Shown here piece by piece: positions 1 through 12,411 of a DNA stretch of 42,190 bases. The stretch spans positions 1-42,190 of the forward strand of contig JBHHUU010000002.1 in the NCBI GenBank assembly GCA_046753905.1, written 5' to 3'. The notes below the pieces were generated by a model. The model was given only the letters and a program-made list of their open reading frames with translations. It had not been told where the DNA came from and ran no database searches. The stretch comes from Nitrospirota bacterium. Lineage in GTDB: Bacteria > Nitrospirota > Nitrospiria > JBHHUU01. Every line of letters starts with the position of its first letter. Positions within the stretch are counted from its first letter, which is position 1. A program made the position numbers and the translations under genes.

Positions 1-61
1 GCTTATAAACGAGCAATCCTAAAAAAATCAGTCCATTTTTTTCAGTCCATTATAGTTTTGC

Positions 62-135
62 AACTAACATCTTAAGCTCACTGGTTTTTGCGGAGCGCCA
101 GCGGAGCAAAAATCCAGTGCAGTGATTTGTTATAC
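62..135 (-). repeat. attC site (about 74 nt) closing the DUF4258 / zinc-finger cassette
   Basis: AACTAAC at 62-68 and GTTATAC at 129-135. Inner arms CTCACTGG / CCAGTGCAG pair with one unpaired base. Outer arms ATCTTAAGCTCACTGG ... TCCAGTGCAG are shared with the attC at 1851-1983. The stop codon of ORF 130-369 lies inside the 129-135 box. Confidence 0.7.
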
Positions 136-369
136 TTTTTCTACAAAGTTGAATACTGGAACTTCAATTGTTTTTACTGGATGAAATTGGTTTTTTACAA
201 ACTTCAAAAGGTCATCTGTGACGGCTGGAGAATAAGTTTTTTCACCACAGCTAGTACAAACTTCAGCAGGTACATCTTCCACAAAAATATATTTATGCTT
301 ATCCTCATCCTCATAACTAAATGTTACATTAGCTTTTTCTATCTTACCTCCACAAAATACACATTTCAT
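130..369 (-). CDS. YgiT-type zinc-finger (MqsA N-terminal-like) small protein, putative antitoxin partner of the upstream DUF4258 gene
   Basis: 79 aa with two CxxC pairs (CVFCGG ... CTSCGE). It starts 6 nt after the DUF4258 ORF on the same strand. Family call is from memory of this architecture. Confidence 0.6.
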   Translation of the reverse strand: MKCVFCGGKIEKANVTFSYEDEDKHKYIFVEDVPAEVCTSCGEKTYSPAVTDDLLKFVKNQFHPVKTIEVPVFNFVEKV

Positions 370-375
370 AAAAAA

Positions 376-675
376 TTACCTCCTTATTTTACAGTCAATC
401 CATTCTTCTGGATCAGGACCATAGGTAGTAATAATAACTACTGATGGTGGAAGCGATAATTGAACATGAATATCTTTTCCATTTTCAGTTTTCCCATATA
501 TCAGACAACTTGGGGAATATTTATCCTTTGGATATTCTTCAATGATTTCTCCCATCATTACAGTTTCTACAATCTCCTGCCTGTCTATTGATCTTTTAAT
601 CATTCGCTTCACAGCATGATCTGAAATACGATACTCTCCTTTTAATATTTTATCCTGTATTGGCTTAATTTCCAT
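376..675 (-). CDS. DUF4258 family protein (toxin-like)
   Basis: 99 aa. ISDHAVKRMIKRSI ... GEIIEEYPKDK ... CLIYGKTENGKDIHVQ resembles the DUF4258 pattern and parallels the paralog at 2273-2596. Confidence 0.6.
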   Translation of the reverse strand: MEIKPIQDKILKGEYRISDHAVKRMIKRSIDRQEIVETVMMGEIIEEYPKDKYSPSCLIYGKTENGKDIHVQLSLPPSVVIITTYGPDPEEWIDCKIRR

Positions 676-700
676 ATGTTTTTTTTATTTAAAGTTTAAA

Positions 701-763
701 GTCTAACTTTTGGCATAAGGTGCCGCTTTTTTTTGCGGTCACTTCTTCATGCCATTGTTAGGA
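701..763 (-). repeat. attC site (about 63 nt) closing the membrane-protein cassette
   Basis: GTCTAAC at 701-707 and GTTAGGA at 757-763. Internal imperfect palindrome GGCATAAGGTGCCGC-T8-GCGGTCACTTCTTCATGCC. It lies directly after the stop of ORF 767-1318. Confidence 0.65.
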
Positions 764-766
764 TTT

Positions 767-1318
767 TTAATAAACAGTTGAGACGGTATATTTTTTGTCT
801 CCAACCATAGCTGTATATTCTAAAATAAAATATTTGTTGCATCTAAACAACTTGCGAAAAATATTAGACTTAAATTGATAAAACGTGTTAGGCAACTCAT
901 TCTCCAACGCTATTGAGGTTTTTACGGTTTGGTCCGTCTGAATTACTATCTGGCTGTGAACATATTGCCCGGAAGTTTTATCCATTACTTTAATTATATA
1001 AGAACTCTCAGAAATATCTCTATCTGCATTACTGGTGATATTAAGATTTTTAGTACTTTTTTTTAACCGAAAGAGTGTTAAATACACAACTGAACCAGTA
1101 TTATTCTTAAAATTAATGTCAAAAGCAGGGTATTGCCGTTGATTTATTAAAATATTAGCTCTCGATAAAAATACCTCCAAATTTGAAATATTTTGAACTT
1201 TCCTTTTATTCCATAAAAAAATAACAACTGGCCACACTGCAGCTGTGAAAGAAAAAATCACCCAATTTGGGAGGTCATTCTCTTGAAGCCAAGAATAGAA
1301 GTTGACAAGTTTTTCCAT
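767..1318 (-). CDS. Hypothetical single-pass membrane protein; no family recognised
   Basis: The ORF track gives 767-1390. I prefer Met25 (ATG at 1318) because the longer form overlaps hicB by 53 nt and crosses a cassette-boundary-like box at 1336-1342. It has one hydrophobic helix (WVIFSFTAAVWPVVIFLW) followed by about 140 aa of polar, beta-looking sequence. Confidence 0.5.
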   Translation of the reverse strand: MEKLVNFYSWLQENDLPNWVIFSFTAAVWPVVIFLWNKRKVQNISNLEVFLSRANILINQRQYPAFDINFKNNTGSVVYLTLFRLKKSTKNLNITSNADRDISESSYIIKVMDKTSGQYVHSQIVIQTDQTVKTSIALENELPNTFYQFKSNIFRKLFRCNKYFILEYTAMVGDKKYTVSTVY

Positions 1319-1335
1319 CAGATTTATTGCTTCAC

Positions 1336-1365
1336 TCCTAACGACAGAGTTCACTGGCGACTCGT
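1336..1365 (-). repeat. Relic attC arm (R'/L' side only) overlapping the hicB 3' end
   Basis: TCCTAAC at 1336-1342 is followed by GACAGAGTTCACTGGCGAC. TCACTGGCGAC is the same arm sequence as in the attC at 1851-1983 (the attC at 2628-2757 shares only CTGGCGAC). No convincing partner arm was found. Confidence 0.4.
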
Positions 1366-1619
1366 TCCTTGGTCTCTGCCACATCGACATAGGTGAATAA
1401 TAAATCTTTAAAATCCGGATTCTCCAAATGCGTTAAGACCGGCTTCCTCTCGGGAACTTCTTGTACGGCTTCTTGATAGGCATCCAGGTTTATTTGGATG
1501 GCTTTGATGGCAGCTTGTTTGGCCGTGTCAAGACTTTCTCCATACGTTACGATGGCTAAATCAGGCACCTGAACGGAAAAACCCGCTTCCGTTGGTTCCA
1601 ACATAATTAGAAACCGCAT
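1338..1619 (-). CDS. hicB: HicB-like antitoxin (UPF0150 fold)
   Basis: 93 aa. MRFLIMLEPTEAGFSVQVPDLAIVTYGESLDTAKQAAIKAI matches the HicB N-terminal pattern. Its start overlaps the hicA stop by 1 nt. Confidence 0.75.
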   Translation of the reverse strand: MRFLIMLEPTEAGFSVQVPDLAIVTYGESLDTAKQAAIKAIQINLDAYQEAVQEVPERKPVLTHLENPDFKDLLFTYVDVAETKERVASELCR

Positions 1620-1819
1620 TACTTTACCTCCAGTTTAATCTTCTTCACCGTATCAACGGCTCGCCCCACCGGAACATCTTTTTGCGGATGAACGATGGTG
1701 ACGACAAACCGACTCTCCGGATGCTTAAAATTGTAATGATCGCCTTTGATGTTAACCCGCGTCCAACCAAATTCCTTGGCCAGATTAATTAGTTCCCGAC
1801 TGGTATATCGTTTCGGCAT
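1619..1819 (-). CDS. hicA: HicA mRNA interferase toxin (YcfA family)
   Basis: The ORF track starts at 1879, inside the attC. I use Met21 (MPKRYTSRELINLAKEFGWTRVNIKGDHYNFKHP), the typical HicA length and motif. Confidence 0.8.
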   Translation of the reverse strand: MPKRYTSRELINLAKEFGWTRVNIKGDHYNFKHPESRFVVTIVHPQKDVPVGRAVDTVKKIKLEVK

Positions 1820-1850
1820 ATTATCAGCGACAAGGATTTTGATTCCACGT

Positions 1851-1983
1851 GGACAACATCTTAAGCTCACTGGCGACAACCGATAGGACGATTAAGTCTT
1901 GATTAACCACAACGGATTAACGACAGACAAGGTCAGGAAAATCAAGCCAGCGGGTTGGCGTCCAGTGCAGCGTTGGGTTAGGC
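1851..1983 (-). repeat. attC site, long class (about 133 nt)
   Basis: GGACAAC at 1851-1857 and GTTAGGC at 1977-1983. Arms CTCACTGGCGACAACCGATAGGACGAT ... GCGGGTTGGCGTCCAGTGCAGCGTTGGGTTAGGC are nearly identical to those of 2628-2757, and the centre differs. Confidence 0.75.
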
Positions 1984-2025
1984 GATGATGCTCTGTAAAT
2001 CTGTGAAATGTGGAGACCTGACCGA

Positions 2026-2060
2026 CCCTCCTCTTGTTTCCCTCCTGTTTCCTCCTGTTT
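2026..2060 (-). repeat. Three tandem approximately 10-nt units, each containing a Shine-Dalgarno-like AGGAGG (minus strand)
   Basis: The + strand reads CCTCCTCTTGTTT C CCTCCTGTTT CCTCCTGTTT, directly after the stop codon (2061-2063) of ORF 2061-2276. Confidence 0.6.
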
Positions 2061-2276
2061 TTAAATAACAATTGGATGCAATTCATACACCCTTGCCTTT
2101 TTTACAGCTGTTTTTAGATCACCACTCCTTAAAGCCTCCCTTACATCATCTAGCTTGTAAGCGTCTTCAAGCGAGAGATATGGAGACCATTCATCATCAT
2201 TAACAATCAACTCAACATCAACTTCTGCTACATACTTTCCTTCATAAATATATTTCGTTTTCTTTCGAGTCTTCAT
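2061..2276 (-). CDS. Small hypothetical protein, likely antitoxin-type partner of DUF4258 gene 2273-2596
   Basis: 71 aa and acidic. Its start overlaps the upstream ORF stop by 4 nt (ATGA-type coupling). No family recognised. Confidence 0.5.
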   Translation of the reverse strand: MKTRKKTKYIYEGKYVAEVDVELIVNDDEWSPYLSLEDAYKLDDVREALRSGDLKTAVKKARVYELHPIVI

Positions 2277-2596
2277 CGTTTTCGCTCCGTAAAACTGTCA
2301 TTCCATCGCTGAGGATCAGGCCGATAAGCTGTTACAAGAACAGCCGGACGGTTGTGGCCTATTGGTATACCCCAAACTACATGTACAGGGTTTCCGTTAC
2401 CATCACTTTGTAAAACAAGGATTGAAGTGCCTTTTGGATAGTTGGGATAATCTTCTATCAATACAGCGTTTTTGATACCTTCCACAATTTCTCTGGCGAT
2501 GAGATTATCATTAGCAAGTTCATCATATCCATGCTCGGATATGCGTACATCGCAAGATTCAACAAGTTCTTTGATCCCTTCTAAGGTGTTACTCAC
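2273..2596 (-). CDS. DUF4258 family protein (toxin-like), second paralog
   Basis: 107 aa. ISEHGYDELANDNLIAREIVEGIKNAVLIEDYPNYPKGTSILVLQSDGNGNPVHVVWG parallels ORF 376-675. Confidence 0.6.
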   Translation of the reverse strand: MSNTLEGIKELVESCDVRISEHGYDELANDNLIAREIVEGIKNAVLIEDYPNYPKGTSILVLQSDGNGNPVHVVWGIPIGHNRPAVLVTAYRPDPQRWNDSFTERKR

Positions 2597-2627
2597 ACGC
2601 TATCCTGATTTCTTTGTATATTTTTGC

Positions 2628-2757
2628 AACTAACGTCTGTGTTCTCTGGCGACAACTGATAGGACGATAAGCCTTGATTAACCACAATGCGTTAACGACT
2701 AAAAAACCTTGCAATTAGCGCCTGCGGGTTGGCGTCCAGTGCAGTGTTGGGTTAGGC
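2628..2757 (-). repeat. attC site, long class (about 130 nt)
   Basis: AACTAAC at 2628-2634 and GTTAGGC at 2751-2757. It shares arm sequences with 1851-1983. Confidence 0.75.
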
Positions 2758-2883
2758 GATGATACTTCCAATATTGGCAACTACTTATTTATTGCCCTCT
2801 GGATATGATATTACCTGTCAGGGTTATTTCTCTCACTTTTCATATTGGGATTACCACATACCGTCTCCTAAAAACTTTGAAAA

Positions 2884-2923
2884 GCCTACCGCTCCCGCCG
2901 TCTGCTGCAACGCTGGGTTAGGC
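2884..2923 (-). repeat. Short or degenerate attC-like site closing the DUF4160/DUF2442 cassette
   Basis: AGCCTACC at 2883-2890 pairs with GGTTAGGCT at 2916-2924. The stop of ORF 2918-3184 lies inside GTTAGGC (2917-2923). At about 40 nt it is shorter than normal attC sites. The true left end may be the GCAACTAC box at 2777-2784. Confidence 0.4.
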
Positions 2924-3184
2924 TATTGGTTGCATTCTCAATAAGTGTCGCACTTCAATGCCGTCGTCTAACTCCTCCCAGTAAATAGCAAAGCCTCCTG
3001 GCTCAAGAGACCATTTAGCCCGTTGCTCTGAAGTGGCTTTTGCTAACCAATCTAACCATTCCACTTGGTCTATTGCCAAACTTATCTCTCTGCCATCGCT
3101 GAGGGATACACGGAGCGTGTTACCAGCAAAGTGGACATCGGTTGCTCCAACCTCCTCTATGACTTTACTTGCTAAAGTAGCCAT
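2918..3184 (-). CDS. DUF2442 family protein
   Basis: 88 aa. ...LRVSLSDGREISLAI ... WLAKATSEQRAKWSLEPGGFAIYWEELDDGI matches the DUF2442 pattern. It overlaps the upstream DUF4160 ORF by 20 nt. Confidence 0.65.
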   Translation of the reverse strand: MATLASKVIEEVGATDVHFAGNTLRVSLSDGREISLAIDQVEWLDWLAKATSEQRAKWSLEPGGFAIYWEELDDGIEVRHLLRMQPIA

Positions 3185-3407
3185 TCCATACCTCCAATAA
3201 TCTATCCTGATTCTGGCGTGTTAATTTCAAAATACGGTTCAATTCGGCTGGGTTATAGCCATGACTGTATTCTACCACCACAGGCTGAAGCCAAATTTTG
3301 GCTTCATTTTCACCATGCAAAACATGAACATGTGGTGGTTCGTTTATATCAGAAGAATAGAACCGGAATTTGCAACCGCCAATTAAGCTTGTTGGCATTG
3401 TAAACAC
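3165..3407 (-). CDS. DUF4160 family protein
   Basis: 80 aa. KFRFYSSDINEPPHVHVLHGENEAKIWL matches the DUF4160 signature. It is the first ORF after attI. Confidence 0.65.
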   Translation of the reverse strand: MFTMPTSLIGGCKFRFYSSDINEPPHVHVLHGENEAKIWLQPVVVEYSHGYNPAELNRILKLTRQNQDRLLEVWNGYFSK

Positions 3408-3606: not shown

Positions 3607-4593
3607 ATGTCAACAGAAAAAAAGAAGAAATTGCTTGAGGAGGTACGGGAGTTTATGCGTCTAAGACATTATTCAATTCATACCGAGCGGACTTATTGTG
3701 AGTGGATCACGCGTTATATCCGTTATCACAAGATGCGTAAGAGGGAGGATTTACAGGGGGGTGAAAAGAAAATAGAGGATTTTTTGACCCATCTGGCTGT
3801 GAAGGAGGGTGTTGCCCCTGCTACCCAGAATTTAGCTATGAATGCCCTGGTCTTTTTGTACAGACAGATATTGAAAGTTCCGTTACAGGAAGAGATAAAT
3901 ACTATAAGGGCTGCGAAAAAGAGGCATATTCCTGTTGTTTTAACACGCAATGAGGTGTGTCAGGTAATTGATCTGCTTGAAGGAAGCCCTCAGCTTATTG
4001 TCAAATTATTATATGGCAGTGGGCTTAGGATTATGGAAGCGGTAAGGCTTCGGGTGAAGGATGTTGATTACAGTATGAAACAGTTGACTGTTCGCTCTGG
4101 AAAGGGGGCTAAAGATCGTGTTACAACTTTTCCTCAGTCTCTTATTCCATTGTTGGAAAATCATTTGGCTAAGGTTAAGGTGCTGCATCAGCAGGATTTG
4201 GTTCAGGGATATGGTGAGGTCTACTTACCCTATGCACTGGCGCGTAAATACCCCAATGCGGCTAAGGAATGGGGATGGCAATATATATTTCCTTCACGAC
4301 AGCTCTCTAAAGATCCGAGAAGCAGAAAGGTGCGAAGACATCATGTTGATCCAAGTGTGGTTAATAAGGCTATTAAGTCTGCTGTTAAAAAGATAGGATT
4401 GAGAAAGCGAATAAGCGCTCATACTTTTCGTCATAGTTTTGCTACTCATCTACTGGAGCGAGGCACTGATATTCGGACTATTCAGGCTTTGATGGGGCAT
4501 AAAGATATCTCAACAACTATGATTTATACTCATATCTTACAACAGGGAGGCTATGGAGTTCTAAGTCCTCTGGATGATTTGAGGGAATATTGA
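3607..4593 (+). CDS. intI: Integron integrase
   Basis: 328 aa. RHRY catalytic residues are in context ([32 protein letters not shown]). The IntI-specific extra segment is present: [24 protein letters not shown]...[12 protein letters not shown]. The C-terminus [12 protein letters not shown] resembles IntI1. RBS GAGGAGG lies 6 nt upstream. Confidence 0.92.
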
Positions 4594-5832: not shown

Positions 5833-6707
5833 TGATACCTAAGGATGTAATTAAAAATATACGCCGTATTCAGATAACCACTTCAAGGATGGTTACAGAT
5901 ATATTTGCAGGACACTATCACAGTGCATTTAAGGGCAGAGGCATGGAATTCAGCGAGGTGCGGGAGTATCAGCCGGGTGATGATATCCGTTCCATAGACT
6001 GGAATGTTACTGCAAAGATGGGCAATCCATATATAAAAAAGTTTGTTGAGGAGAGGGAGCTGACTGTTATGGTAATCATGGATATATCGCTTTCATCTGT
6101 ATTTGCCACAACAGGACAGATTAAGAGTAAGTTATCTGCTGAGATATGCTCTCTCCTGTCACTCTCTGCTCTCCAGAACAATGACAAAATAGGGCTTATT
6201 CTCTTTACTGACAGGATAGAGAAGTTTGTCCCCCCCAGAAAGGGGATGCAGCATGTATTAAGACTCATCCGTGAGGCAATATATTTTAAGCCTGAGGGGA
6301 GGGGGACTGATATAAGAACTGCTCTTGAATATCTCAGTAAGATAGCATCACGAAGGACAGTTGTATTTATTATATCTGATTTTTATGCCCCTGATTTTAA
6401 GAAGGCTATCTCTATTGCCAACAGGCGGCATGATATTGTAGCTATAACTATAACTGATCCTGTGGAATTTGATCTGCCTAATATCGGTATAGTGCAGTTA
6501 GAAGAGGCAGAGACAGGGATGGAGTTTTTGATAGATACATCTGATCCTTTTGTAAGGAAGGAGTACAATAAAAGGGCAGACAGGCTCTTTGATGAGAGGA
6601 AGAGGCTTTTTAATTCTGTGGGTGTGGATAATATAGATATTCGTACAGATATTCCCTATGCTCAATCTCTGGTAAGGTTTTTCAGAAAGAGGGAGAGGAG
6701 GAGATAG
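5832..6707 (+). CDS. DUF58 protein (VWA-like, MoxR partner)
   Basis: 291 aa. GxxxSxFKGRGMEFSEVREYQPGDDIRSIDWNVTAK is the DUF58 signature. Its start overlaps the MoxR stop (ATGA). Confidence 0.85.
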   Translation: MIPKDVIKNIRRIQITTSRMVTDIFAGHYHSAFKGRGMEFSEVREYQPGDDIRSIDWNVTAKMGNPYIKKFVEERELTVMVIMDISLSSVFATTGQIKSKLSAEICSLLSLSALQNNDKIGLILFTDRIEKFVPPRKGMQHVLRLIREAIYFKPEGRGTDIRTALEYLSKIASRRTVVFIISDFYAPDFKKAISIANRRHDIVAITITDPVEFDLPNIGIVQLEEAETGMEFLIDTSDPFVRKEYNKRADRLFDERKRLFNSVGVDNIDIRTDIPYAQSLVRFFRKRERRR

Positions 6708-8683: not shown

Positions 8684-10597
8684 ATGAAGTTCGGTAATAT
8701 CAATGCAGGATATATGCTTTTATCAGTCGTTGGGTTGAGTCTCTTCTACTTCTGGGTATCTAAAAAGAGGAAGAGACTGAAGGAGATATTTGCGGAGAGA
8801 GGTCTTCTGAATATTCTACTCTCTTCGGCAAACATTGCTGCTCAGAGACAGAAGGCAATATTAATAACTGGCGGAATCTTTTTATGCGTATTATCTTTAA
8901 TGAGGCCGGAGTGGGGGTTCCACTGGGAAAAAGTAAAGAGGAGAGGACTTGATATAATAATAGCCATAGATACATCAAAGAGTATGCTGGCAGAGGATGT
9001 AAAGCCAAACAGGCTTGAACGGGCAAAACTCGCAGTTAAAGACATGATTAAAAAACTCAGAGGCGACAGGATCGGCCTTGCAGCATTTGCAGGAAGTGCG
9101 TTTCTTCAATCTCCTCTGACTGTTGACTATAATGGCTTTATACTCTCATTGGACAGCCTTGCTACAGACACTATTCCAAAGGGAGGGACATCCCTCTCAA
9201 GTGCTATAAGAGAGGCTATAAAGGGGTATGAAGGAAAAGAGAAAAAGTATAAGGTGCTGGTAATCATTACAGATGGCGAGACCCACGAGGGCGACCCTGT
9301 AAAGGCAGCAGAAGAGGCAAAGGATGCAGGCATTAAGATATTCTGTATAGGTATAGGCACAAAGGAGGGGGAGTTGATACCTGTCAGAGATGAGAGAGGC
9401 AATAAGGTCTTTTTGAAAGATAGCCGGGGCAATGTGGTCAAATCCCGTCTGGATGAAACGACACTTAAAAAGATTGCATTAAGCACAGGTGGAAGCTATG
9501 TCCGCTCTACTGCAAAGGAATTTGGATTAGCCCTGATCTATAGAGAGAGGCTCTCAAAGATGGAGAAAAAGGATATTGAGAATAAGATGGTTAAACACTA
9601 TGAGGAGAGGTTTCAGTTACCATTAGCTCTTGCCCTGATATTCCTATTGGCAGAGATGTTTGTGAATGAAAGAAAGAGGGAAAAGAGGAATCATGCAGAA
9701 GATGGCGGAGGCAGAAAGAGAGGATTCTTAAAGTGGATCTGGGGTAATCGCTCCTTTATATGGGTCTTAATTGTGATGTCAGGACTTTTAATAACATCAG
9801 AAGCCCTTGCAGCATCTACTAAGAAGATATTGAATAAGGCAAACGGATTATACAGGGAAGGCAAGTATGGTGATGCTATAAAGAGATATAATGAAATATT
9901 GAGCAATGATCCTGACTCTCCGATTGCAAACTTTAATGCTGGAGCTGCATATTATAAACAGGGAGACTACAAAAAGGCAGAAGAATTTTTTTTAAAGGCA
10001 TTGACAACAGAAGATAGGGAGCTTGAGGTAATGGCAAATTATAATATGGGCAACTCAAAATATAGAGAGGCAATGCTCAAGAAAGATAAAGAGCCTCACG
10101 AGGCAGCAGACCTATTAAAGGAGTCCCTTGACTATTATAAGAGGGCAATAGAGTTAAACAGAGATGATAAGGACGCAAAATTCAATCATGAATTTACAGA
10201 GAAGAGTCTAAAGATATTATTAGATAAACTTAAAAACATGGAAAAAAAAGAGGGGGAGTCTGATAAAAAGGATAAACCCGAAGAAAATAGAGGTAAGAAA
10301 GAGAGAAAAGAACAGGCGGATAGCTCTAAGAGAGAGGATAAAAAGAAAAAAGGGGATGGAAAAAAGCAGGCGGGAGATACCCCAAGAGGTGCTAATGATA
10401 AAAAAGAACCTGAAGACACAAAAACTAGACAGAAAAAAGAAGAGGCTGGACAAAAGGGAGATAAAGAGGTAAAAGAGATGTCTGAGGATGAGGCAAGGAT
10501 GTTATTAGAGGGATATATGCAGGAAGAGGAGTCAGAAAAGAGATTGAAATTTGAAAAGAGAGAGGGTTATTATCCTGAGGTATTAAAAGATTGGTAA
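8684..10597 (+). CDS. batB: BatB-type VWA protein fused to a BatC-like TPR region and a Lys/Glu-rich tail
   Basis: 637 aa. N-terminal TMs, MIDAS DTSKSM, an internal TM, TPR repeats (LYREGKYGDAIKRYNEIL...), then a highly charged K/E/D tail. Confidence 0.8.
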   Translation: MKFGNINAGYMLLSVVGLSLFYFWVSKKRKRLKEIFAERGLLNILLSSANIAAQRQKAILITGGIFLCVLSLMRPEWGFHWEKVKRRGLDIIIAIDTSKSMLAEDVKPNRLERAKLAVKDMIKKLRGDRIGLAAFAGSAFLQSPLTVDYNGFILSLDSLATDTIPKGGTSLSSAIREAIKGYEGKEKKYKVLVIITDGETHEGDPVKAAEEAKDAGIKIFCIGIGTKEGELIPVRDERGNKVFLKDSRGNVVKSRLDETTLKKIALSTGGSYVRSTAKEFGLALIYRERLSKMEKKDIENKMVKHYEERFQLPLALALIFLLAEMFVNERKREKRNHAEDGGGRKRGFLKWIWGNRSFIWVLIVMSGLLITSEALAASTKKILNKANGLYREGKYGDAIKRYNEILSNDPDSPIANFNAGAAYYKQGDYKKAEEFFLKALTTEDRELEVMANYNMGNSKYREAMLKKDKEPHEAADLLKESLDYYKRAIELNRDDKDAKFNHEFTEKSLKILLDKLKNMEKKEGESDKKDKPEENRGKKERKEQADSSKREDKKKKGDGKKQAGDTPRGANDKKEPEDTKTRQKKEEAGQKGDKEVKEMSEDEARMLLEGYMQEEESEKRLKFEKREGYYPEVLKDW

Positions 10598-10599
10598 AA

Positions 10600-12411
10600 A
10601 TGAGACGGTTATTAGTTATTAGTTGTCAGTTGTCGGTATTTATTATTAGCCTATTTTTGTTACTACAGGTATCTTTTGCCCAGGAGATACGGTTTGAGGC
10701 AGGAGTGGACAGAAATACAGTATCATTGGGGCAGAGTGTGCAGCTCAGCCTGACATTTCATGATACTCAGGATATCCCTGCGCCTGAGTTAAACAAGATT
10801 GAGGGTTTTAAATCAAGGTATGTAGGTCCGTCTTCAAGGATGTCTATCATAAATGGAAAGGTCTCATCATCTATAAGCCATATCTATTCTCTTCTCCCTA
10901 TAAAGACAGGCAGATTTCAGATAGGACCGATATCTTTCTCTTATAAGGGCAACACCTATAAGTCAAATTCAGTCGTTATTGAAGTAGTGGATAGCCCTTC
11001 TCCACAGATACCTCATTCTCAATCCTCAAATCAAAAGGCTATAGACCTGAAAGACAGGGTCTTTCTTGTTATAAAACCAGAAAAAAAGAAGGCATATATA
11101 AACGAAAACATTAGATTAATCATAAAACTATATATCTATAATGTTACCATAAAGGATATTGAATATCCAGAGTTTGAACATGATGGTTTTTCTGTAGGAG
11201 AATTCGGCAAACCGAAAGAATATCAGGAGATAGTCGGAGGCATGCCCTATAATGTCTTAGAGTTTGATACAGAGATATTCGGGACAAGGCCTGGCAAATT
11301 TAAACTTGGACCTGCAAAGATAAAGTGTAATCTAATAGTTAAAAAGGGACGAAGACGAAGTTTACCATCCATCTTTGATGACTTTGATGACTTCTTTGGC
11401 AGATATGAGGCATATCCGTTAGACCTGACATCATCTGACATACCAATAACCATAAAATCACTTCCCACAGAAAACAGACCTGAAGATTTTGCAGGTGCGG
11501 TCGGGAGATATGACCTCCATATAACAGCATCTCCGAAAAAGATAGAGGCAGGAGACCCTGTTACCCTAAAGATAACTATAACAGGTAAAGGCAATCTCAA
11601 TACCGTAAGTTTTCCTCATATAGATATAAAAGATGGATTCAAGACATATAAGCCTCAGATAAAACAGAATAGGAATAAAAAGGTATTTGAACAGGTTATT
11701 ATTCCTAAAAAAGAGACAATAAAAGAGGTCCCAGAGGTCAGTTTCAGCTTCTTTGACCCTGAAAAGGAGAGATACTATACCCTTGCTAAAGGTCCTATTC
11801 CCATCGTAGTAACAAAGCCGGACAGAGAGGAGAGTGTAGAGATAGTTGAGATGCCGAAGGGGTCTGTAGTACCTGTAAAAAAGGAGATACTTGGGAAAGA
11901 TATTGTCTACATAAAGACCTCCATTGGAAGAGTGAAGAGGAGAGGAGACTATCTATATAAGAATAGTATATTCTGGTTTATTCAGGTCATCCCGCTCTTT
12001 GCTGTTGTATCTCTGTCTCTGGTACAGAGAAAGAGAAGGAAGATAAAAAGCGATGTAAGGTATGCAAAGAGTCTCATTGCATACAAAAAGGCAGCAAAGG
12101 GGATAAAGAAGGCTGGTCAGCTTCTGTATGAAGAAAATAGAGAGGAGTTTTACCACTTAATATTTAAGATAATTCAAGAATATATAGGTGATAAGTTTCA
12201 TCTCGTATCACAGGGTATCACAATGGGGGTCATTGATGAGACCCTGAGGCGATCTCAAGATATTAACGAGGATATCCTCAGCAGGATAAAAGAGATATTC
12301 ACAGAGTGCGATATGGCACGATATGCCCCTTCAGGTTTTACAAAAGGGAAGATGGAAGATACATTGAAGAAACTAAAGGAGGTTATAGAGTACTTGGAGA
12401 GGAAGGGATAG
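10600..12411 (+). CDS. batD: BatD (oxygen-tolerance family) protein
   Basis: The ORF track starts at TTG 10591. ATG 10600, 2 nt after the batB stop, is more plausible. It has a signal peptide, repeated beta domains, a TM near FWFIQVIPLFAVVSLSLV, and a DUF4381-like C-terminus. Confidence 0.75.
   Translation: MRRLLVISCQLSVFIISLFLLLQVSFAQEIRFEAGVDRNTVSLGQSVQLSLTFHDTQDIPAPELNKIEGFKSRYVGPSSRMSIINGKVSSSISHIYSLLPIKTGRFQIGPISFSYKGNTYKSNSVVIEVVDSPSPQIPHSQSSNQKAIDLKDRVFLVIKPEKKKAYINENIRLIIKLYIYNVTIKDIEYPEFEHDGFSVGEFGKPKEYQEIVGGMPYNVLEFDTEIFGTRPGKFKLGPAKIKCNLIVKKGRRRSLPSIFDDFDDFFGRYEAYPLDLTSSDIPITIKSLPTENRPEDFAGAVGRYDLHITASPKKIEAGDPVTLKITITGKGNLNTVSFPHIDIKDGFKTYKPQIKQNRNKKVFEQVIIPKKETIKEVPEVSFSFFDPEKERYYTLAKGPIPIVVTKPDREESVEIVEMPKGSVVPVKKEILGKDIVYIKTSIGRVKRRGDYLYKNSIFWFIQVIPLFAVVSLSLVQRKRRKIKSDVRYAKSLIAYKKAAKGIKKAGQLLYEENREEFYHLIFKIIQEYIGDKFHLVSQGITMGVIDETLRRSQDINEDILSRIKEIFTECDMARYAPSGFTKGKMEDTLKKLKEVIEYLERKG

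Follow-up and report, generated by a model that had tools for sequence, protein, structure and literature searches.

Genes and cassettes at the locus

We analysed a stretch of 42,190 nucleotides (hereafter, the window), which spans positions 1 to 42,190 of contig JBHHUU010000002.1 of a Nitrospirota bacterium (assembly GCA_046753905.1), and focused on one gene cassette of an integron near its left end, the target cassette, which encodes a small membrane protein. DNA of the window was found in hydrothermal-vent metagenome runs, and the host is an uncultivated hydrothermal-vent bacterium. The left edge of the window falls within the cassette array. The minus strand carries all cassette open reading frames (ORFs), which are located left of the integrase gene intI (Table 1), and a long run of large ORFs on both strands follows to the right of intI; the integron is read as chromosomal and not mobile. 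The other visible cassettes carry genes of the toxin-antitoxin type, as identified with Pfam: DUF4160 with DUF2442, DUF4258 with a 71-amino-acid protein, HicA with HicB, and DUF4258 with an MqsA-like zinc-finger protein. A preliminary description of this DNA had singled out the target cassette as the only visible cargo outside this class, which agrees with the Pfam assignments of its neighbours; a toxin-antitoxin reading of the target protein itself was rejected. Rfam and tRNA scans of the window gave no matches.

Table 1 Features of the target cassette and its surroundings in the window (a slash in a sequence marks the cassette boundary; TM, transmembrane; Ig, immunoglobulin).
Feature	Position	Strand	Evidence
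Complete integron gene cassette, 635 bp, G/TTAGGA to G/TTAGAC	707-1341	-	Boundaries read from the sequence; 7/7 box complementarity
attC of the cassette, 63 nt	701-763	-	Fold z = -5.3; strict attC test positive
Cassette ORF P0001, 183 amino acids plus stop; predicted N-out single-pass membrane protein with an Ig-like beta-sandwich	767-1318	-	Translation, family, AlphaFold
Codons of the D15-L-P-N-W19 motif, just before the TM helix	1262-1276	-	Conservation in 62 sequences
Codons of the TM helix, residues 19-37, with conserved W29-P30 kink	1208-1264	-	Model helix 18-38; Kyte-Doolittle maximum 1.7 over 19 residues; K/R-rich C-terminal flank
Codons of the beta-sandwich, residues 47-182	773-1180	-	Model; generic Ig-like fold matches only
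Half attC (R'/L' arm only) of the hicAB cassette, within the 3' end of hicB	1336-1361	-	Arm pattern matches the array attCs
hicA-hicB toxin-antitoxin cassette, directly upstream	1338-1879	-	Pfam HicA_toxin 3e-10, HicB_lk_antitox 5.8e-10
Integron integrase gene intI, divergent from the array	3607-4593	+	NCBIfam TIGR02249, 448.5 bits (cut-off 265)

The target gene lies in a genuine integron cassette

The target ORF begins with an ATG at 1318 and ends with a TAA at 769-767. The R'' box TCCTAAC (GTTAGGA on the plus strand, 757-763) starts three bases past the stop codon and is followed by an imperfect hairpin and then by the R' box GTTAGAC (701-707; GTCTAAC on the plus strand). Folded as single-stranded DNA, this attC reached -13.7 kcal/mol as compared to -4.5 ± 1.7 kcal/mol in shuffled sequences, and none of 200 shuffles was as good. 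The bases that bulge from the hairpin occupy the 3' half of the plus strand, where they would be expected on a bottom strand, and the plus strand is thus probably the recombinogenic bottom strand of the site.

At the other end, G/TTAGGA (1342-1336, read on the cassette strand) lies 24 nt before the ATG and is the exact 7/7 reverse complement of the cassette's R'' box, a complementarity seen in only 3 of 450 control ORFs; in the circular form of the cassette, its R' box would be completed by TTAGGA. The same box, TCCTAAC at 1336-1342, heads a 19-nt arm (TAAC..TCNCTGG) that occurs only at attC sites of the array (3 matches as compared to 0.01 expected). The complementarity and the shared arm together indicate that 707-1341 are true recombination-point boundaries. 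This complementarity of boxes in the circularly permuted cassette served as our second test for cassettes, the first being a strict attC test, which scores arm pairing after the stop codon of an ORF and was run with controls; the window cassette was positive in it, while none of 468 control ORF stops was. A first detector, which demanded 6/7 box complementarity within one site, was dropped as it missed even the window's own site. The region 707-1341 is a genuine integron gene cassette, and both the limits that the preliminary description had given for it, including the boundary box at 1336-1342, and the 63-nt attC that it had placed at 701-763 proved exact.

That description had also assigned the cassette a product of ca. 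184 amino acids. The ORF is confirmed, while its length is 183 amino acids, since the figure of 184 counts the stop codon. A 207-amino-acid reading from 1390 was rejected because it overlaps hicB and crosses the recombination point at the cassette boundary.

The product belongs to a conserved family without annotation

A phmmer search against 1.84 billion cluster representatives returned 152 proteins at E ≤ 1e-3, with 101 of them reaching E ≤ 1e-10, and most of the 152 were ca. 180 amino acids long and covered over their full length. The family thus comprises at least 152 clusters at 50% identity. A word-indexed database contributed seven relatives, with 45-55% identity, and a profile search of a 5.8-billion-protein index added only three further proteins. 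The clusters have one to five members each, mostly from short contigs, and every name among them is 'hypothetical protein'. Searches of Pfam, NCBIfam, PADLOC and PHROGs gave no match to the target protein except for a sub-threshold MASE2 match (Pfam) on its TM helix, and the 62 aligned family members likewise gave only sub-threshold MASE2 on the TM helix against Pfam. A sequence profile search of the PDB returned nothing below E = 0.1. The target had been described as an orphan in no family; the lack of a curated family is confirmed, whereas the orphan status is not, the protein being a member of a conserved unannotated family.

The ratio of nonsynonymous to synonymous substitution rates (dN/dS, Nei-Gojobori) was 0.07-0.18 between close pairs of the family and 0.20 between the window and its nearest relative. 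These values point to strong purifying selection on the family. The target gene is real and under constraint.

In P0014 (380 amino acids), a family member from the search of representatives, the ORF also encodes a further TM helix and beta-rich domain of like design ahead of the family module, which reflects either the fusion of two modules in tandem or the merging of two gene calls.

Predicted structure and topology

AlphaFold with the 62-sequence alignment yielded a model of the target protein with a predicted local distance difference test score (pLDDT) of 96.6 and a predicted template modelling score (pTM) of 0.86, whereas a run on the single sequence gave a pLDDT of 37 and was not usable. 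The model contains an amphipathic helix at residues 2-13, a uniformly hydrophobic helix at 18-38, and about ten strands with two short helices over residues 47-182. The single N-terminal TM helix and beta-type C-terminal domain of the preliminary description are therefore retained in the model.

The best-conserved positions are D15, P17, N18, W19 and W29-P30 in the N-terminal part and F70, N72, T74, F111 and F164 in the core of the sandwich, and the window protein keeps ca. 30 of the 35 conserved residues of the family. Within the D-x-P-N-W motif, conservation among the 62 sequences was 96% for D15, 93% for P17, 95% for N18 and 87% for W19. Since conservation is strongest in the DxPNW motif and the TM helix, the helix is conserved like a functional element and not like a passive tether. 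The 15 residues before the TM helix contain on average 1.1 K+R and 2.0 D+E, and the 15 residues after it 3.2 K+R and 0.8 D+E; the C-terminal side was the richer in K+R in 55 of the 62 sequences. By the positive-inside rule, this bias places the N-terminal tail outside and the beta-sandwich in the cytoplasm.

The Foldseek search on the AlphaFold model gave no confident match to a known family. Against the PDB, all matches were Ig-like sandwiches of a generic kind (ApaG, PCuAC copper chaperones, the AP2 appendage and cytoplasmic domains of KirBac channels), with a best E value of 2.8e-3 and TM-scores of at most 0.48, and against BFVD the best E value was 7e-4 with poor TM-scores and no convincing relative. 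Two family assignments were rejected. PilZ was discarded because the family has R-[RK]-V-x-x-[IV]-P and N-x-T-G-S in place of RRxxxR and [D/N]xSxxG, has no PF07238 match, and has no PilZ domain among its top fold matches. A type IV pilin-like protein, which should have a short basic leader that ends in G/A, Glu5 and an extracellular beta domain, was discarded because the leader is 17-23 residues long, acidic and marked by DxPNW, lacks a G|F..E motif, and is followed by positive charges after the helix.

Decay of the upstream attC and fusion to hicAB

The hicAB cassette next to the target retains only half of its attC (Table 1). Its R''/L'' arm is absent between 1362 and 1850 with three mismatches allowed, and at the same tolerance the partner arm (CCAGTGCAG..GTTA) occurs in the window only at 114, 1962 and 2736. 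The stretch 1330-1440 folds no better than its shuffles (z = -0.02). The last HicB codons and the hicB stop codon are encoded by attC sequence.

As the preceding attC lacks the R''/L'' arm, the target cassette is not bounded by two functional attC sites; the upstream boundary had been placed at the correct position, whereas the site found there is a half site and not a functional attC. This decay indicates that the target cassette has become fused to the hicAB cassette, and the two probably form one excisable and transcribable unit, for whose excision IntI would now need the attC at 1852-1986 together with that at 701-763. The ATG of the target lies 19 nt past the hicB stop codon with no hairpin between them, and read-through from the hicAB promoter appears to be the likeliest source of its expression.

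Genomic contexts of the homologs

The contexts of the family were examined at 61 non-redundant loci. The search for related loci used a 13-sequence subset of the alignment, as the 62-sequence alignment was too diverse. With the controls given above (0 of 468 and 3 of 450), the strict attC test was positive at 15 of the 61 loci, and 7/7 boundary complementarity was found at 12 homolog loci (13 of 31 testable loci, the window included). Either test was positive at 19 loci, or at 21 when 6/7 complementarity was accepted. Some of these loci are dense arrays, with six attCs in 3.5 kb at L032 and seven attCs at L047, and a relative of IntI (48% identity) is encoded 3.4 kb from the homolog at L010. 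In the closest homolog cassette, L004 (55% identity), the attC matches that of the window in length, in the R'' box and in the central CGCAAAAAA loop, while the arms differ; this likeness suggests that the gene and its attC were inherited together. The cassette neighbours of homologs include genes for HEPN_AbiU2, SIR2_2 (a faint Pfam match) and MUG113/HNH. Some cassette-borne homologs are decaying: L015 has an in-frame stop within the TM helix (ca. 1450-1470), and L067-L069 have a frameshift or truncation after residue 80 (6001-6572).

Other copies lie next to restriction-modification genes. At L001 the homolog is directly behind a type I restriction-modification island that also carries DUF3644, RAMA and DUF1828 genes, at L011 it directly follows a type I operon, the gene order being HsdR-Fic-HsdM-HsdS-homolog-DUF6680, and at L056 and L058, which are near-identical and were counted once, the homolog is located 150 nt behind a type III Mod-Res pair. 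At L011, which comes from a metagenome-assembled genome of Candidatus Omnitrophica, the homolog is bracketed by a 77-nt direct repeat of the hsdS 3' end (9916-9992 and 10550-10626; 74% identity; ...KAFKGEL-stop), and DUF6680, a small gene whose product has a hydrophobic N-terminus, comes after the second copy; such repeats may be a non-integron way to stack small genes behind hsdS. DUF6680 was considered as a relative of the family and rejected, being helical, with an apparent N-terminal hydrophobic segment, and not visibly related.

Further copies are found 91 nt after tRNA-Gln (L018), 27 nt after tRNA-Pro (L022) and within an island carrying a tyrosine integrase (L074). The distant member P0123 (24% identity, DIPNW kept) is directly behind the gene for a phage terminase large subunit on at least two contigs. 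At L075 (565-2413), L076 and L077, the terminase large subunit encoded just before P0123 has 393 amino acids, and no PHROG match was obtained for the large gene that comes next. This element may represent a satellite or the remnant of a prophage. Two unknown genes follow the homolog at L017 and L057, and in L017 a Schlafen/AlbA_2 gene comes after them, three genes downstream. There is no conserved partner gene, the downstream neighbours differing at every locus, which indicates that the gene works alone. The prospect that homologs are never cassette-borne or linked to mobile or defence contexts, which the preliminary description had raised against its own proposal, is not borne out: 19 to 21 of the 61 loci are cassette-borne and others lie in mobile or defence contexts.

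Foreign origin of the cassette

The attC sites of the array type are homogeneous, and the attC of the target cassette is not related to them. In a vent metagenome run (X1), the array-type attC stretch 2513-2826 was covered at ca. 35 times the depth of unique DNA, as compared to single-copy depth at the target attC. Across the array-type stretches 2513-2826, 1885-2041 and 1-157 of the same run, the depth was ca. 8 to 38 times that of their unique flanks. The excess indicates a large sedentary array of which the window shows only the start, and the array beyond the left edge probably holds tens of cassettes. Between the attC at 2625-2760 and a short attC-like site at ca. 2884-2926, which folds poorly (z = +1.1), the stretch 2760-2925 has no ORF and is possibly an empty or decayed cassette.

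The GC content of the target cassette was 30-33% as compared to 42-46% in the proximal cassettes and intI. Both distal cassettes (the target and the DUF4258 and MqsA-like pair; window 1-1340) have 30-34% GC as compared to 42-46% for 1400-3400, and the distal low-GC cassettes may be the more recent foreign acquisitions. In run X5, from an independent study, the hicAB, DUF4160/DUF2442 and 123-469 cassettes are present in a related organism at ca. 90-97% identity, with hicAB and DUF4160/DUF2442 at roughly 95%, and its depth is zero over 629-1413, which holds the target cassette, and over 2042-2512, which holds the DUF4258 and 71-amino-acid cassette. The target cassette is thus variably present among relatives. 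That it was acquired from elsewhere is shown by an attC of foreign type, a GC content lower by ca. 10 points and its lack in the related organism.

In a maximum-likelihood tree of 51 members, all cassette-borne copies fell in one clade (Shimodaira-Hasegawa-like approximate likelihood ratio test support, 95), in which the window is sister to the L004 cassette, and the deep branches were formed by copies associated with restriction-modification genes, tRNA genes and islands. The simplest reading of the phylogeny would be that an island gene entered the cassette pool once and then passed, with at least eight switches between cassette and non-cassette states, among the integrons of Beta- and Gammaproteobacteria, Thermodesulfobacteriota and the vent bacterium studied here.

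Proposed function and alternative explanations

An interfacial helix, a conserved motif on the outer face, a kinked TM helix, a sandwich of the binding type, solitary mobility and placement at conflict loci together fit best with phage resistance conferred by one protein. From this architecture and the gene neighbourhood, a stand-alone membrane-acting phage-exclusion or abortive-infection protein appears to be the likeliest function, to which we give somewhat less than an even chance. The protein would act alone as an anti-phage determinant at the membrane. Its cytoplasmic beta-sandwich would bind a partner that is derived from the phage or induced by infection, and the TM/DxPNW module would then block genome entry at the inner membrane; alternatively, the module would oligomerise and permeabilise the membrane, resulting in abortive infection. 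A fuller version of this proposal, which we regard as doubtful when taken as a whole, is an undescribed one-protein anti-phage system spread by integrons, in which the N-out D-x-P-N-W/TM module blocks entry or forms a Kir-like oligomeric pore and the sandwich senses the trigger, and whose lineage was captured once as a cassette and now circulates among integrons of several phyla. The preliminary description had put forward phage defence as an idea, and this idea gains moderate contextual support from the adjacency to restriction-modification genes, HEPN_AbiU2, the faint SIR2_2 match and the copy next to the terminase gene.

Several observations weigh against a role in phage defence. No known defence model matches the target, with 0 PADLOC-DB v2 families of defence hidden Markov models at E ≤ 10, and searches of 2.9 million viral contigs, 50,697 phage records and 72,556 plasmids yielded no homolog. 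No catalytic or pore-forming signature is recognisable in the protein, and its predicted topology, N-terminus outside and sandwich inside, is drawn from the charge bias only. Promoter-like sites in the window sequence are not above chance, the Shine-Dalgarno spacing of the target ORF is poor, and no RNA-seq run was found to hold the gene. Only three independent restriction-modification adjacencies were seen, and the sample of defence or mobile adjacencies is small as a whole, consisting of these three, HEPN_AbiU2, the faint SIR2_2 and the Schlafen gene, plus the integron, tRNA, integrase and terminase contexts. Many non-cassette copies stand alone among housekeeping genes such as those for transketolase, aspS and RecG, and integron cassettes and genomic islands also carry many non-defence functions.

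Some of these points suit a different kind of accessory membrane protein, namely a cytoplasmic Ig-like adaptor tethered to the inner membrane, which would recruit or sequester a protein of the host, for instance under envelope stress or in adaptation to a niche, and would have spread as adaptive cargo. Such an adaptor would account for the lack of a defence-family match, for the homologs alone in housekeeping neighbourhoods and for a fold like those of generic binding or adaptor sandwiches (ApaG, PCuAC and the AP2 appendage). It would not account for the copies found repeatedly right behind restriction-modification operons, after a terminase gene and in the company of Abi- and SIR2-like cassettes, and the distribution of the family over the phyla is sparse and very patchy, as is typical of conflict genes and not of genes with a physiological role. 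We therefore regard an adaptor without a defence role as an unlikely explanation that nevertheless deserves weight.

The gene might also be a silent passenger in this genome, intact, unexpressed and retained only through the addictive hicAB, a condition that can coexist with any of the other explanations. It is in the fourth or a later cassette from attI, the promoter and Shine-Dalgarno results point the same way, the half attC prevents its independent excision, and homologs elsewhere are decaying (the in-frame stop of L015 and the truncation of L067-L069). On the other hand, the ORF is intact with its conserved residues kept, and read-through is plausible because hicAB cassettes normally have their own promoter and no hairpin or terminator precedes the nearby target ATG. 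Silence of the gene seems improbable.

An orphan immunity protein against an interbacterial toxin (a bacteriocin or an effector of contact-dependent inhibition or of a type VI secretion system) that acts at the inner membrane or in the cytoplasm is quite improbable. The gene would be kept in store in an array linked to a recombinase, in the manner of acquired interbacterial defence clusters, and a small, membrane-anchored, non-enzymatic and partnerless protein that is kept in recombinase-driven arrays under strong purifying selection would suit such a role. However, no cognate toxin gene was seen beside any homolog, and there is no likeness to known Pfam immunity families. Finally, a spurious ORF or a non-coding cassette, for which nothing speaks beyond the AT-rich composition, is refuted by the 152 homologs, the dN/dS values far below 1 and the pLDDT of the model.

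For the favoured reading as a phage-resistance protein, the cassette is a well-delimited candidate, with a confident predicted structure, no required partner and independent occurrences behind restriction operons and a terminase gene, and the family alignment offers D15, P17, N18, W29, P30, N72 and T74 as mutational targets. If it protects against phages, the protein would be a new minimal membrane-acting defence module and an example of an island gene entering the cassette pool; if it does not, it would still define a new and well-delimited family of membrane proteins and illustrate how the decay of an attC can fuse two cassettes.

Comparison with known systems

Most integron cassettes have no known function. 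Among unknown integron cassettes that have been tested, 10-33% overall were phage-protective, comprising 10-18% of the cassettes of the V. cholerae superintegron and about one-third of unknown cassettes from mobile integrons (10.1101/2024.07.02.601686, 10.1101/2024.07.02.601719). TM helices occur in about one-third of the phage-resistance integron cassettes (BRiCs), of which Deva and BrcWGS21 are examples, and for Deva a block of genome injection at the membrane has been proposed (Kieffer et al., 10.1101/2024.07.02.601719); Brigantia is a further example of a phage-resistance cassette (Darracq et al., 10.1101/2024.07.02.601686). The target resembles the BRiCs, when compared by description and not by sequence, in consisting of a single small gene with an attC in an integron array and in encoding a TM helix with no recognisable domain. 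It differs from them in its source, environmental chromosomal integrons, in that searches of plasmids and phage records yielded no member of its family, and in being known here from sequence alone.

Stand-alone, N-terminally anchored small proteins that confer phage resistance from mobile elements include lactococcal AbiP and Sie2009 of a prophage. The target shares with them a one-gene, membrane-anchored and mobile organisation, and its distant relative P0123 lies behind a phage terminase gene. No sequence similarity was detected (PHROGs and PADLOC were negative), and the Sie domain is outside the cell, whereas that of the target is predicted to be cytoplasmic. In CBASS (cyclic-oligonucleotide-based antiphage signalling system), the effector Cap15 consists of TM helices and a small beta-barrel that binds the cyclic-nucleotide signal, so that a design of an N-terminal anchor with an all-beta domain serves abortive infection. 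The target is likewise a small protein with an N-terminal membrane anchor and a C-terminal all-beta domain. It was rejected as an effector of the Cap15 type because it has one TM helix and not two, has no PADLOC match, has no cyclase gene beside any homolog, and did not recover Cap15 among the top 50 PDB fold matches.

The ApaG (DUF525) and PCuAC sandwiches (1xvs, 2f1e, 1tza, 3zk0 and 6p1f), which gave the best Foldseek matches, share the general beta-sandwich topology of the target. The similarity is limited to E values of 3e-3 to 2e-2, a TM-score of at most 0.48 and 7-14% identity, with no Pfam match to them in the target or the 62 members, and these proteins, which are soluble or periplasmic, have no counterpart of the N-terminal DxPNW/TM module. 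KirBac3.1 (1xl4/2wlj), an inward-rectifier K+ channel of bacteria, shares with the target the order of its elements, from the amphipathic helix at the N-terminus through a TM helix to an Ig-like sandwich in the cytoplasm, and several KirBac and Kir chains were among the fold matches over 173-201 columns, with TM-scores of ca. 0.3. The target has one TM helix instead of two and neither a pore loop nor a selectivity filter; the likeness, as judged from the model, is architectural and gives no sign of membership in that family. Taken against these systems, what appears to be new is an undescribed conserved membrane-protein family, and what is of a known kind is an integron cassette of unknown function, which seems to hold above-average promise as a defence candidate.

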